64,000 nucleotides of DNA from a virus (Duplodnaviria; Caudoviricetes): the IMG/VR virus record IMGVR_UViG_3300028048_000038, positions 345,538 to 409,537 of that record, one strand, 5' to 3'. The position numbers and the translations under genes are program-made. The notes under the pieces are model-generated. The model searched no databases, was not told the DNA's origin, and worked only from the letters and a program-made list of their open reading frames with translations. Below, in pieces: positions 1,349 through 49,172 of the stretch; position 1 is the first letter of the stretch; every line of letters begins with the position of its first letter.

Positions 1349-4300
1349 TTAAATGTCATCAAATGAAACTCCTTCTGGAGTGATGATGAAGTCGATTGTA
1401 ATGTACTCTAATGCATTGTAAGGTTTTATGTAAATCTTACATGGAAGCTCTCTTCTCTCCCTTGACTCGATTGTATCGTTAACTTCAATTCTGTAATCAG
1501 AGATACCTCTATTGCTTCTGATGCTATCCAAGATTGGGGTTACAGTAGAAATGAATGACTGCTTAACAGTTGAATCATTTGGTTCAAAGATAAGACCAAT
1601 ACAAGAGATTGCAATCAACTTTCTCAATCTAAGAAGCAATCTACGAACTGCGATTCTGTTGAGCTGAGACTCGTTAATCTGTAAGTTCTTCTGGCCCCAA
1701 ATCTTAGGACCGTCTTGAGCAAATGTCTTAATTGGGTTGATTCTACCCTCATAAAGAACGTCCTCATCTCCAAGCTTGGTAATGAAGTGTGCTCTCACAC
1801 AATCAACGTTACCTCTTGAAATACCTGCAGGTGCGAACCAAGGATATGCTGTATTATCAGTCTGTGCAAAGTTTCTAACTGCATCCTTTGTTGCTGGAAG
1901 ATAGATGTACTGATTGTTATCTTGGTCAAGATACTTAACCCAAGGATAATATGTACAACTATAGTTAGAATCAATCTCAGAATCCTCAAGATTACCAACT
2001 GCCTCATCTGGAGTGAACATTTCATCAACGTAGTCGCCAGCACCACTTGGTTTATCAGGAGTTGTAACCACATATATTGAATCAGCTCTCTCTTCCTCAA
2101 TCATTTCGATTGCCTCCTCTACAAGAAGCCTATTGTTTACATAGTCTATACCTGGAGTAGCGAATACGTTAATATCTGTTGCCTCTGGGTTAGAGAACTG
2201 TCTGATACCACTAAGGTAAGCATACCAGTCAGAGGTAATACCATTCTGATTCAATTGTAGAAGGTCTGGATTCTTAATTCTATTGAATGCATAACCCTCA
2301 CCACTACCTTGGTTGATGAAGCCTCTGTACTGAGACATCTTGTAGCCATCAGTGTTGGTTCTCTGGTCTCTGTAATCATCCCATCCATCGAATCCTCCAT
2401 AGAAGAATACTGTGAACTTACGAAGATTTACATACTCATAGATTGAACCGAACATATCGTCTTCAGTACCAATGATTGGTGGTTCAGACAATGTAGAAGT
2501 TCTAGAGTTTGTAGAAACGCAATCGAACTTATATCCACTTTCACCATCAACGGTGTATGCTGAGATGCCTCCATTATCAGCATCAAGTCTTGAATCAAGG
2601 TGGAAACCTCTAGTCATGAATTGTGGATTGTCAATATACGCCTTATTACCCTTGAAGGTAAAGTTGTCAATGTCTACACCAACCCAAGAAGAAAGACCGA
2701 AGTATTGTTTTCTATTCTTAATATCTGGGTCGAAGAATCTATTGTACTTTAATGTTGGGAATGCAACACTGTTTCTATCACCGTCAATTGGGAGACCGTT
2801 ATACTGAGGTATAGGATAACCCAAGAAACCAGCAGGCACTGACATCTTAGCTGCTGTGGTCTCATTTACTTCAACTGTGATGTACTTAGACTTAGATTCA
2901 TATACGCCATCGAATGAGCCAATCTTATACGCAATATAGTTACTATCGCCTGGAATCATTGAGCATCTTCCAAATCTCTCAAGTGGCATAATCTGTTCAT
3001 CAGCATCATCCACTCTGCGAACAATGACATCGAACAAGCCATCATCTGGTCTGATGTTCTCAATTGATACCTTAACCTCATAGTTGGCATTGTTACCATC
3101 TGTAATTGTATGGAATCTGAACAACTTGTTAACTTCAACATGGTCAAAGTCACCCTTCAAGTTAGATACAATCCAAGGTGTAGAAGCATATCTGTATGCT
3201 GACTTGTAGTCATTCATGTCAAGCTCAACATATGCAACATCACTAGCATCCTCATTCATTCTGTAATAAAGACCGTCATAGGTGTTGAGAACCAACTTAG
3301 ATGCTTTCCAATTAGTTGTATTATCGTTGTTCTTTGTTCCACCACTGAGAAGATTACCATAGACATTGGTCAATTCAGCGCCACTAGCAATGATTTCCTC
3401 AAATCCCTCAGAATAATAACCATATTGATAAACCCTCTTACCATCAGCATTTGTATATTGCCTTACAGTGTAAATCTGTCCTGCAATAGCATCTTCACTC
3501 TTTATTTGGGTTTTTCCATTAACAACTTCAGTCAATGGCTTATTGGTCTTGTAGTTATAAGGAACAACCTTAATGCCTAATTCATTTGATTCTTTATCAG
3601 CTAAAAATCTCATACCAACATGCTTTCTTCTAAGCGTTGTCTCAGCCATTCTCAAAAGTCCACCAACTGGCTCATGATGACAATAATCAGCAGTATAATA
3701 TACGTTAAACTGCTTCAAACTATCGTCAATCACATTAACTCTATCCTCAATGATTGCTTGGTCAAGAGCAACATCATAAAGAGACTCAACGAATATTGGA
3801 GCATCACCATCATAAGGTTTTGAGCCAAGAACGTTAAGAATGTACTCCTTATCATATGGATTAAGCGTTACTGGATACTCGAAATAACCCTTTGCAATTG
3901 CCTCTTCTCTTTCCTCAGTAGTTCCACTATATCCTTTGTTGATAATATCCCTTACCTCTGGATTCTCTTCCGTATCACTGTATACACCTTTTACGCCAAC
4001 AAGCTTGAATCTGCCGTGATTGTTCTGAGAAATATAGAAATTGGTTGAAGCGGTATCACCACTCATTCCATAACCACTACATTCATTACCATTGCTGTCC
4101 ATTGGGACATAAGGCTTAATCTGAAGAGCATTCATATTATAACCGTTCTTGTCACAAATATTGGTTGCGTCACCGCTATTTGGTTTCTCACCAACAAAGT
4201 ACTTAAGAACATCATATTTTGATTCCTCACAAACACAATCAGTGGTAGAACCAGTCTCATATGGGTTATAAGTACCTCTTGAACGGATTACAGCAACAGC

Positions 4301-44144: not shown

Positions 44145-44212
44145 CTTTTTTTAAAGAGTTTAATTTGGTAAATACGATTATTTTCAATATCTTTGCCAAA
44201 ATATAAAATTAT

Positions 44213-45223: not shown

Positions 45224-45622
45224 ATGAGGTGGATAAATAAACCTAGAAAGAAGACTAGAAGGGAGATTGTGCTAGAGTACATTAAGTTTATAAAGATTAT
45301 GGGTTACTACGATTCGTTAACTCATTTCATGTATTCTCTTGCAAGAAGAAAATGTGTGATAGTTTATTCGGACAATGGCTTCAAGAAAAAATATAGCCTA
45401 TCGGATGTCATTTCTCATAATCAAGTTATGATTAACTACTTTGAATATATTCTTTCAACGTGTGGCAGTAGTATCAGACGATGGGTGATTAAAGAACATT
45501 TCATTTGCAGACCATTACAATCAAAGCTGCATGGCTATATGGAAGTGGAAGCCTTAACAAACCTTCTAATGTCTTATTTCAAGGATAAACATATTGACAA
45601 TTGCATAATTGTTGACAATTGA
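45224..45622 (+). CDS. Hypothetical protein (paralogue of the previous gene)
   Basis: EYIKFIKIMG...LLMSYFKDK. Confidence 0.55.
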   Translation: MRWINKPRKKTRREIVLEYIKFIKIMGYYDSLTHFMYSLARRKCVIVYSDNGFKKKYSLSDVISHNQVMINYFEYILSTCGSSIRRWVIKEHFICRPLQSKLHGYMEVEALTNLLMSYFKDKHIDNCIIVDN

Positions 45623-45650
45623 AATATTTATTTTCGGAGGATATATTGAT

Positions 45651-46778
45651 ATGATATTGTGTATTGGAGATTTACATGGTAGAACGTTTTGGAAAAAGGC
45701 TGTCGAAGATAACATAGATAAGGTTGATAAAATCATCTTTATCGGTGATTACTTAGACCCATATCCATTTGAGGGTATCACTAGAAAAGACGCAATAAGG
45801 AACTTCCAAGAGGTGATTGAGTTTAAACGAGGTAGTCCAGAAAAGGTGACACTTTTATTGGGTAATCATAAATTTATTTCATTTAAACTTTAAATTCTCA
45901 CTATGGCGAAAGAAAGTTCAAAAAGTTTAATGAAATACTTTGTGCTCTTGATGAGAAATCATCAAGCGAAAACTAGGCTAATTGCTGGAAACCCCTTAGA
46001 GCCTTAACTACTCTCTTATGGTAGTAATACGCATAAGAAACCTATGGTAATGCGTAGGGTATAGTGAAAATGTTAAGGATTGGGAAATCTACTAAAAGCA
46101 GCGAAGCATCCCACGTGGATGTGTGCTCATCGACTATCGCTGAAATGCGAGTACACTCAAGTGAGTGGAAATGCCTAGCCCCTAACGTGTAATGACGAGG
46201 GTGTTGATATAGTCAATTCTCATAGGAAACCTATGAGCAGTCTTATAAAGACGAACTGAATGTAACGAATTCAGTTGAATACAAAGGATTTGCCTTATAT
46301 CGATAAACGTAACTTTGATTCAAGGTCGAGATATGATTCTAGTAATGCATATCACATTGAGGAAATGTTTCGTTCACATCGTTCACTCTTTCAATTAGCA
46401 CATGAAGAACTTATAAGTGATAAGAGATATCTTTTCACACATGCTGGATTACAGAAAGGTTGGTACGATAACAATAAGAAAATAATTGGTGAACTAACAG
46501 TTGAAAATTTAAATAAACTATTGGATGTACCATACGGGATAAGGTCTTTATGTGAAGCTTCTTGGTTAAGAGGTGGAACAGACCAATACGGCAGCATTGT
46601 ATGGAATGATTTGAGAGACATGCATTCTAGGGTAAATCAAGACATACCTTGGGATTATCAAATATTTGGTCATACGATGCTAGATGATGAGCATCCATTG
46701 ATAACCAAGCAATTCGCTTGTATAGATTGTCAGAAGGCGATAATAATAAACGATGATGGAGGATTTGTTGAATGCTAG
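45651..46778 (+). CDS. Metallophosphoesterase split by a group I intron (exons 45651-45869 and 46287-46778; 236 aa spliced)
   Basis: IGDLHG...IGDYLD...LLGNH | DLPY...FTHAG...QIFGHT; splicing restores GNHD in frame. Confidence 0.88.
45870..46286 (+). mobile_element. ORF-less group I intron, 417 nt, IA-like
   Basis: Exon ends in U and intron ends in G; P1 CATAAA/TTTGTG with a U.G pair; P element AATTGCTGGAAA (45980); P3 CTAGGC/GCCTAG; P7 GACTAT (46132)/ATAGTC (46209); two extra hairpins after P7; P9 CTCATAG-GAAA-CCTATGAG. Confidence 0.9.
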
Positions 46779-46918
46779 GAATTGGCCCAAAGGAATTGCC
46801 AGAGGAACAAGGGAGATATGCGTATGAACTTCTTAAGAAACTTAAGGAAGTGAAGGTACTTGATGATGATGAGGAAAACTTTTATAACTTTTTAAAAAAG
46901 AAATATGAAAAAGAGTAA
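46772..46918 (+). CDS. Small hypothetical protein (48 aa, not in ORF track)
   Basis: MLGIGPKELPEEQGRYAYELLKKLKEV...; overlaps both neighbours. Confidence 0.45.
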   Translation: MLGIGPKELPEEQGRYAYELLKKLKEVKVLDDDEENFYNFLKKKYEKE

Positions 46919-47117
46919 ACCTACAAAGAGCACGGAACAGTATAAGATACTGAGAATGATTAGCCGTGATGAACAAATAGAACGTAATGGAGGCGGTCAA
47001 TTTGTTTCAATGAATCGTGTCTATAAGGACAAAAGTAAGTACAACCGTAATGATAATAAGAAAGAGTTTAGGAACGACCTAAACTCTATTTTTTTGCTTT
47101 TAAATTTGGAATTTTAA
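46905..47117 (+). CDS. Small basic protein, candidate ArfA/BrfA-like ribosome rescue factor
   Basis: RVYKDKSKYNR basic motif, hydrophobic tail, terminator inside the ORF. Confidence 0.45.
   Translation: MKKSKPTKSTEQYKILRMISRDEQIERNGGGQFVSMNRVYKDKSKYNRNDNKKEFRNDLNSIFLLLNLEF
47063..47095 (+). terminator. Intrinsic terminator located before the stop codon of ORF 46905-47117
   Basis: AGAGTTTAGG-AACGA-CCTAAACTCT-A-T7. Confidence 0.8.
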
Positions 47118-47159
47118 CATTTTTTACATATCTTTGCAAAAAATAACAAAACAAAGATA

Positions 47160-47870
47160 ATGGGAAAAATTGTATTAGAGAGCAATATCGTAAATGACAG
47201 TTATACACAATTCTTGTATGACTCATACGATATCCAAAACAGAGAGAAAACCGTAACTGAAGTTCCAATTCCATCAAAAGAAGACATGGAGGCAATGAAT
47301 AAGGATGATTGGAATATCCTTCTAATCTGTGGAAAGAGTGGTAGTGGAAAGTCAACAATCTTGAGAGAGGTATATGGTGATGTAAAACCGATTGAATATG
47401 ACTATGACAAATGTGTAATCAGTCAGTTTCCAAGGCTAAGTGAAGAAGAGGCTTGCGACCTACTATCAAGCATGGGTCTCAGTTCAGTCCCCACGTGGCT
47501 CAGAAAGCCTCAACAACTCTCCAATGGAGAAAGGGCAAGGCTAGATATCGCAAAGGCTATATATGACGCAAATGGAGGCGTTGTACTACTCGATGAGTAT
47601 ACATCTGTGGTCAATAGGTCAGCAGCAAAATCAATGAGTCATGCCTTGCAGAGATATGTAAGACAAAAAGGATTGAAGGTTATTATAGCTAGTTGTCACT
47701 TTGATATTATTGAATGGGCACAGCCTGATTATATATTCAATCTTGAGCATAGAGACGAGAATGGTGAAGTTGAAATGGAGAAGATGGTTTATGAGGAAGG
47801 AAAAGACTATAACGCATACCAATCCCCAAGAGATATAGATGTATTAACTGAAGCTGTAGATGTACCATGA
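47160..47870 (+). CDS. ABC-type ATPase (ATPase half of the COG2401-like ATPase-acetyltransferase)
   Basis: GKSGSGKST, MGLSSVPTWLR, LSNGERAR, LDEYTSVVNR, ASCHFDI.EW.QPD. Confidence 0.85.
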   Translation: MGKIVLESNIVNDSYTQFLYDSYDIQNREKTVTEVPIPSKEDMEAMNKDDWNILLICGKSGSGKSTILREVYGDVKPIEYDYDKCVISQFPRLSEEEACDLLSSMGLSSVPTWLRKPQQLSNGERARLDIAKAIYDANGGVVLLDEYTSVVNRSAAKSMSHALQRYVRQKGLKVIIASCHFDIIEWAQPDYIFNLEHRDENGEVEMEKMVYEEGKDYNAYQSPRDIDVLTEAVDVP

Positions 47871-49092: not shown

Positions 49093-49172
49093 GTTGACAT
49101 TTGTTTGAGTCAATTTTTTTGTATATCTTTGCATCGTTAAACATATATTAACTTTAAAACTTAACAATATAA

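Follow-up and report, generated by a model that had tools for sequence, protein, structure and literature searches.

We analysed a window of 64 kb, the last part of a virus record of 409,537 bp that has inverted terminal repeats and a G+C content of 35%; the source of the record is a jumbo phage of the rumen or gut. Within the window lies a reading frame of 70 codons, whose product includes RVYKDKSKYNR and has the C-terminus SIFLLLNLEF, in agreement with the original prediction of a small basic ORF at this place (Table 1). The terminator that had been predicted inside this frame (47063-47095, a 10-bp stem and a run of seven T, about 20 nt before the TAA) was likewise found, and the stop codon starts 27 nt past the stem and 19 nt past the T-run. 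The arms and the loop of the hairpin read AGAGTTTAGG / AACGA / CCTAAACTCT, and the hairpin region has a folding energy of -15.4 kcal/mol (z = -3.4), a value that was reached by one of 200 shuffles. Judging from the sequence, the message would end at about codon 62-64, without a stop codon, and the mature product is likely to consist of codons 1-61 plus one or two residues from the T-run, that is, of about 62-64 aa. The predicted protein of about 62 residues has a pI of 10, and residues 37-57 include eight K+R. The tail IFLLLNLEF, which had been taken for a hydrophobic feature of the protein, lies outside the functional protein: it arises where the frame continues through the T-run and the promoter of the next gene.

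Table 1. Features of the small basic gene and its surroundings (positions in the window)
Feature	Position	Strand	Remarks
Promoter of the Bacteroidota type, TTTG-N20-TAnnTTTG	44164..44195	+	probable head of a transcription unit of about 2.9 kb
ORF of 70 codons, ATG to TAA	46905..47117	+	direct reading of the DNA; TAA at 47115-47117
Conserved coding core, codons 1-61 (M...LNS)	46905..47087	+	protein-level selection, near-invariance among close relatives
Basic motif KDKSKYNRNDNKK, family consensus HKNKKKYDRKRDKK	47025..47063	+	family-wide conservation maximum; Y46 and R48 invariant or nearly so
Terminator hairpin, 10-bp stem and 5-nt loop	47063..47087	+	codons 53-61 (K-E-F-R-N-D-L-N-S)
A + T7 tract	47088..47095	+	expected transcript 3' end, from the behaviour of intrinsic terminators
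Read-through tail IFLLLNLEF + TAA	47088..47117	+	unconserved among relatives
Promoter of the Bacteroidota type, TTTG-N20-TATCTTTG, of the next gene	47105..47136	+	inside the ORF tail, starting 10 nt past the T-run

Strong terminator-like sites number 116 in the 409,537-bp genome, and exactly one of them, the site described here, is crossed by an ORF of at least 45 codons that starts with ATG. Since 1 of 116 terminators is read through in this manner and a promoter lies in the tail, the arrangement of a terminator before the stop is real, selected and exceptional. The hairpin site is probably a true boundary of transcription units. It should be noted that the hairpin is A+T-rich, with four G-C pairs among its 10, and a closely coupled ribosome could suppress termination.

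The small basic gene is the last of its unit, which also contains two calcineurin-like phosphoesterases and small ORFs, and no further site of the promoter type was found between the promoter at the probable head of the unit and the basic gene. The second phosphoesterase gene (45609..46778) is split by about 380 nt (45894-46274), and its halves are contiguous in relatives, for example in locus L006 (2298..3002). The first 14 nt of the basic gene are shared with an acidic ORF of 48 codons (46772-46918). This acidic ORF is absent from the related phage loci, in which the basic gene and the phosphoesterase overlap directly. The next gene, which encodes a P-loop ATPase, has its ATG at 47160. Promoters of the form TTTG-N18-22-TAnnTTTG occur 21 times in the window versus 3.1 times expected, i.e., a sevenfold enrichment (examples are found at 44164-44195, 47105-47136 and 49100-49131), and many of them have in common the longer form TTTGGAATTTT...ATATCTTTG. 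This enrichment points to the use of the host sigma factor and to a Bacteroidota host; such a host had been predicted, and both the host-type promoters and the homologues in Bacteroidales uphold it.

The phage genome encodes 46 tRNAs, and none of these genes, nor a tmRNA gene, is located within the 64-kb window. Genes for tmRNA, SmpB and release factors were found nowhere in the whole phage genome, and PF01668 had no match in the protein or in the genome. A tRNA with the anticodon CTA, which reads TAG, is encoded outside the window (G000:C1:136577-136653). Recoding of TAG, which this tRNA brought to mind, was rejected, as the stop-to-stop ORF statistics gave no sign of it genome-wide.

Conservation of the coding core and of the terminator

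A word-index search yielded 294 close relatives of 64-106 aa, and a HMMER scan of 1.84 billion representatives yielded 121 clusters, all of them of small proteins. In eight codon-aligned close relatives, the differences at codon positions 1, 2 and 3 were 150, 112 and 611, respectively, and the codon differences comprised 477 synonymous versus 190 non-synonymous ones. For example, two phages differ in the codon for Ser 4 (AGT versus TCA), and Arg codons alternate between CGT and AGA. The gene is real and is under protein-level selection. Conversely, a conserved non-coding RNA that ends in the terminator, with no protein gene at all, is scarcely credible. The conserved block does end exactly at the terminator, and there are Rfam matches, weak and sub-threshold; however, substitutions are concentrated in third positions, six-fold codons are switched synonymously, an in-frame stop is absent from all of the hundreds of relatives, and no Rfam family reached the gathering score in the window, with merely weak chance-level matches in 46700-47200. 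The codon-position pattern refutes the non-coding RNA reading for practical purposes.

Among close phage relatives, the position of the gene directly 3' of the second phosphoesterase is kept, while the downstream genes differ. The small basic protein is 87-90% identical between phages, whereas the adjacent phosphoesterase of the same phages is just 47-54% identical, which implies a tightly constrained partner. Such a strong constraint fits a conserved host target, for instance the ribosome.

The loci in which the layout of the gene was compared came from IMG/VR jumbo-phage contigs (185-401 kb) together with shorter fragments, from Bacteroidales genomes (15 loci), from Bacteroidia MAGs (four contigs) and from metagenomes (two short contigs). 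A hairpin followed by a T-run was found after the conserved Y-x-R motif in 36 of the 42 distinct loci (23 of 23 phage or metagenome loci, three of four MAG loci and 10 of 15 bacterial loci), with protein identities in the loci that keep the layout spanning about 25-97%; conservation of the terminator before the stop had been proposed as a check of the original prediction, and it was strongly borne out, with compensatory changes in the stem and with six loci that lack the arrangement. The hairpin in these 36 loci has 9-16 pairs and begins 10-23 nt past Y-x-R, and 35 of the 36 hairpins end from 14 to over 700 nt ahead of the first in-frame stop; in the remaining one (L042), the stop abuts the T-run. 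In the subfamily of the window, changes on both sides that preserve pairing were observed at eight of 11 stem pairs, and distant subfamilies have an entirely different stem sequence at the same position, e.g., AAGGCAG...CTGCCTT in the bacterial group.

Residues 1-61 are nearly invariant among close relatives, and beyond L-N-S, which is encoded by the 3' arm of the hairpin, both the sequence and the length vary. The tails past the T-run comprise 5-94 codons in phage relatives and have no common sequence, ORFs of the related phage loci range from 66 to 155 codons, and a single cluster at 90% identity includes lengths of 61-116 aa. In the bacterial locus L056, the frame continues for 240 codons, into the next gene, and in L006, a phage locus, the tail reaches over the 3' end of a convergent gene, which ends at the same hairpin. 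The L006 hairpin (3153-3190) is flanked by an A-run and a T-run, the convergent gene of 150 codons occupies 3188-3640 on the minus strand, and this hairpin probably terminates transcription on both strands.

Six bacterial or MAG relatives (L041, L049, L052, L058, L094 and L095) have no terminator before the stop; therefore, the non-stop design is not obligatory for the family. In four of the six, L041, L049, L052 and L058, the stop lies about 12-14 codons past Y-x-R, and the length of the product is approximately that of the predicted non-stop product. These six stop-bearing copies would be expressed from ordinary messages and would escape control by tmRNA. L049, L052, L058 and L094 form a bacterial subgroup with the core ...DYIKAVKKADRE... 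and an ordinary stop some 13-14 codons past Y-x-R, and L041/L047 and L095 are more divergent.

The core of the family begins with a Lys-rich N-terminus, followed by a helix around D-Y-I-K-A...R-E-E-E-L-E, a short G-G-x-W-V segment and then the best-conserved block, H-K-N-K-K-K-Y-D-R-K-R-D-K-K. In a six-frame search, the family was present in 32 of 401 sampled Bacteroidales genomes (about 8%) and in six of 401 genomes of a phylum-wide sample, again mostly Bacteroidales. More than 4,000 proteins were retrieved with a profile built from the bacterial members, the named ones being “hypothetical protein” entries of Bacteroides caccae, B. acidifaciens, B. salyersiae, B. congonensis, Parabacteroides sp. 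and similar organisms. One chromosomal copy is flanked by a thiamine-pyrophosphate enzyme and a formate/nitrite transporter and is thus not in a prophage. In this host-and-phage family, which is chromosomal in part of the Bacteroidales and has been taken up by, or is common to, their jumbo phages, the phage copy forms a single branch; the gene had originally been regarded as a phage-encoded factor, and the idea of a specifically phage device is not supported. Among the genome contigs, an exact peptide-word scan gave no match and a scan with a narrower alignment gave the four Bacteroidia MAG contigs; a megablast search of the region against GenBank phages returned a single irrelevant match of 48 nt. 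Searches of Pfam, NCBIfam and PDB sequences with the window protein and up to 123 relatives identified no known family for the protein or for the family as a whole.

Similarities and differences relative to ArfA, BrfA, SmpB, ArfT and DUF7230

ArfA and BrfA are back-up ribosome-rescue factors. To our knowledge, they are the only established genes that deliberately lack a stop codon for control by trans-translation, and we know of no ArfA or BrfA in Bacteroidota. In BrfA, a rho-independent terminator lies inside the ORF and the active form has about 62 aa (PMC6881298); ArfA is also the product of a non-stop mRNA, and both proteins insert a basic C-terminus into the mRNA entry channel, have a KH motif in common and recruit RF2 (PMC6881298, PMC8012679). 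A structure of BrfA with the ribosome has been deposited (PMC6881298).

The likeness of the window protein to BrfA (YqkK of Bacillus subtilis) is one of design. Both are small basic proteins with a terminator in the ORF before the stop and an active form of about 62 aa, which is a predicted one in the window protein; both may combine an N-terminal helix, an extended or strand segment and a positively charged C-terminal region, and in both the unconserved residues past the terminator would be outside the active protein. They differ in that the KH motif is absent from the window protein, that one occurs in Bacteroidota and the other in Bacillus, and that the present family is also found in jumbo phages. 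The K-H dipeptide itself is replaced by Y-K in the window protein and by H-K in its relatives. No similarity to BrfA was detected at the sequence level: a profile search of all PDB chain sequences with E up to 10 gave one unrelated match with E of 1.9.

The AF2 model of the window protein (pLDDT 87.8) consists of two helices (residues 12-28 and 52-62) joined by an extended segment (29-51), with no strand called, compared to the order of helix, short RF2-pairing strand, helix and basic tail in BrfA. A structural comparison had been suggested as a check for a fold of the ArfA/BrfA type, and the model turned out to have no neighbour: Foldseek against PDB gave nothing meaningful (best E 5.5), and neither did a wide VIA-align search (best Z 2.1). 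When the family alignment was combined with that of a Bacteroidales RF2 (26 sequences, restricted to the part past the frameshift site), complex prediction in a run without controls returned no answer (score 0.00), which speaks neither for nor against binding.

With ArfA (YhdL, PF03889; E. coli and beta/gamma-proteobacteria), the window protein has in common the design of a non-stop mRNA, a similar size and a basic segment K-x-K-x-x-Y-x-R-K, and the hairpin inside the ArfA ORF is either cut by RNase III or acts as a terminator. Unconserved tails vary the length of the ORF in both cases, with ArfA relatives of 69-110 aa, whereas the N-terminal half of ArfA is unrelated to the window protein. 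The sequence likeness to ArfA that had been judged by eye was not substantiated. PF03889 had no match at E up to 10 with the protein, with 32 and 123 relatives or in the six-frame genome, and hhalign against E. coli ArfA and an ArfA alignment aligned 8-10 columns with a probability of 0.2-0.3%, i.e., below 1%. These columns pair K-x-K-K-Y-D-R-K with KGKGSYMRK of ArfA, and the alignment is short and not significant.

A closer match was found in SmpB (PF01668). [quoted passage not shown] The family segment (V/I)HK(S/N)KK(V/K)YDRK matches this hinge, AVAKGKKVYDKRE, including the position of DKR. Against A-V-A-K-G-K-K-V-Y-D-K-R-E, the tail start of SmpB in a carrier genome, the identity is nine of 16 residues (BLASTP E = 0.003, for a single comparison), and hhalign of the family against the SmpB tail gave E = 0.013 with a probability of 3% over 14-16 residues. 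The family is without the globular domain of SmpB, and the tail hinge motif is all that aligns. Thus, of the known proteins compared, the start of the SmpB tail appears closest to the basic motif, which suggests the same binding site; however, the alignment is not significant and is too short to prove homology, it could be compositional, given that the motif is short, basic and of low complexity, and the likeness may be a convergence on the same rRNA surface.

Two other kinds of small proteins were compared. ArfT of Francisella tularensis is a small RF-dependent rescue factor in a lineage without ArfA and ArfB (PMC6299226). The stop-bearing bacterial subgroup of the present family would resemble ArfT in expression, with no internal terminator ahead of the stop. 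We know of no use of a non-stop mRNA by ArfT. DUF7230 (PF23876) and phrog_2701 are tiny basic phage and bacterial proteins, to which an ESM-Atlas lead pointed with a score of 0.90. The likeness of some family members to them is weak and sub-threshold (DUF7230, five of 123 relatives, best E 1e-3; phrog_2701, 14 of 123, best E 2.5e-4), and the window protein matched neither the DUF7230 model, with its cut-off of 27 bits, nor phrog_2701. DUF7230 proteins differ in having about 40 aa and no N-terminal helix; any link is weak and at the level of the motif.

On the evidence of these comparisons, the family appears to agree with ArfA and BrfA in design, size and charge, but not in sequence. It would represent a third family with the gene design of arfA and brfA, unrelated to them in sequence, in a new phylum and its phages.

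Proposed function and alternatives

As the most economical reading, with a probability of roughly 0.55, we propose that the gene is an analogue of ArfA and BrfA in Bacteroidales and jumbo phages, i.e., a peptide that is encoded by a non-stop message, is controlled by tmRNA and acts on ribosomes with an empty mRNA channel, most likely through recruitment of a release factor. By analogy to the known factors, the transcript would end at the hairpin, inside the frame and without a stop codon, and ribosomes that translate this message would stall at its 3' end. As long as tmRNA-SmpB has spare capacity, the product would be tagged and degraded, and saturation or loss of trans-translation would allow the protein to accumulate, following the same feedback logic as in arfA and brfA. 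The mature protein would then combine the helix at residues 12-28, an extended middle and the K/R-rich segment K-x-K-K-x-Y-D/N-R-K that resembles the SmpB tail hinge. Most likely, ribosomes that are stalled on truncated messages would receive this basic end in their empty mRNA entry channel, and a recruited host release factor would subsequently release the peptide. In this scheme, tmRNA control, ribosome binding and release-factor recruitment are all derived by analogy. In phages, the protein would maintain the supply of ribosomes when many mRNAs are broken through infection or host defences.

In a transposon study posted as a preprint in 2025, tmRNA-SmpB was essential in Bacteroides uniformis and Phocaeicola vulgatus but dispensable in Parabacteroides merdae; homologues of arfA or arfB were not found in P. 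merdae, and an unknown rescue mechanism was proposed (10.1101/2025.10.10.681549). The family offers a concrete candidate for this question. More tentatively, and at somewhat less than even odds, we suggest that the family is the alternative rescue factor of Bacteroidales, a third and independently evolved RF-recruiting peptide under tmRNA control, whose patchy presence would explain why trans-translation is dispensable in some gut species (such as P. merdae) and essential in others, and whose jumbo-phage copy would recycle host ribosomes once tmRNA is swamped by infection or by defences that cleave RNA.

Several other functions are compatible with part of these observations. The protein might be controlled through its non-stop message and bind the ribosome with another output, plugging the channel without recruitment of a release factor and thereby blocking or modulating tmRNA-SmpB, or parking and silencing ribosomes. 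The basic motif is closest to the SmpB tail, and a synthetic SmpB-tail peptide is reported to inhibit the binding of tmRNA-SmpB (review PMC8012679). Furthermore, an RF2-binding element like that of ArfA and BrfA and a KH motif were not detected, and the phage has no tmRNA, SmpB or release factor of its own. Nevertheless, we consider this unlikely, because a runaway loop would arise if trans-translation had to fail before its own inhibitor was made, and because chromosomal copies in bacterial housekeeping contexts argue for a beneficial back-up role. Moreover, every natural gene regulated through a non-stop mRNA that we know of encodes a rescue factor.

The terminator could also overlap the 3' end of an ordinary small basic nucleic-acid-binding protein incidentally, as a consequence of compact genomes, with enough read-through or ribosome-coupled anti-termination to yield a stop-bearing message and with a tolerated tail. 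The low number of G-C pairs in the hairpin and the ordinary stops of six relatives are consistent with such an accident. Conversely, the layout persists in 36 of 42 loci over deep divergence, on stems of completely different sequence, one of 116 terminators in the genome is so arranged, and tails enter promoters, convergent genes or the next gene and reach 240 codons. Tails that run into promoters and genes, together with a layout that is conserved and unique in the genome, are unexpected for a functional C-terminus or a needed stop, and an incidental overlap is therefore improbable. A leader peptide or attenuator is very improbable; in this reading, ribosomes that translate the small ORF across the hairpin would control whether transcription continues into the downstream genes. 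Although the ORF overlaps the terminator, so that the stem would be melted by a ribosome located at codons 53-61, conservation at 87-97% over 61 residues is unlike a leader, and the downstream genes are unconserved, the downstream gene being convergent in L006 and provided with its own promoter in the window.

The gene design in common with arfA and brfA makes the small basic gene a strong candidate for the missing rescue factor of Bacteroidales and their phages. The more than 4,000 “hypothetical” members occur in major gut and rumen Bacteroidales and in their phages of 200-400 kb, and we found no paper on such a factor in phages of Bacteroidales hosts. If the analogy is true, the phage gene would be a small autonomous sensor-effector that is active only when the ribosome rescue of the host is overloaded. 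Rescue pathways are discussed as antibiotic targets, and a back-up factor of dominant gut commensals matters for the prediction of effects on the microbiome.

With respect to the release factors of the hosts, two carrier genomes represented by complete chromosomes encode RF1 and RF2 only, with no ArfB-like third protein with an RF-1 domain. A Bacteroidales genome with a stop-bearing member contains a third RF-1-domain frame with two in-frame TGA codons (G380:C1:21538-21870); this frame may belong to a gene of the ArfB or PrfH kind, to a pseudogene or to a gene subject to recoding. In a carrier genome, the gene for RF2 (L061, 1024-2061, minus strand) is open only from a TTG that is about 25 codons short of the usual RF2 N-terminus, consistent with the usual programmed +1 frameshift of prfB.
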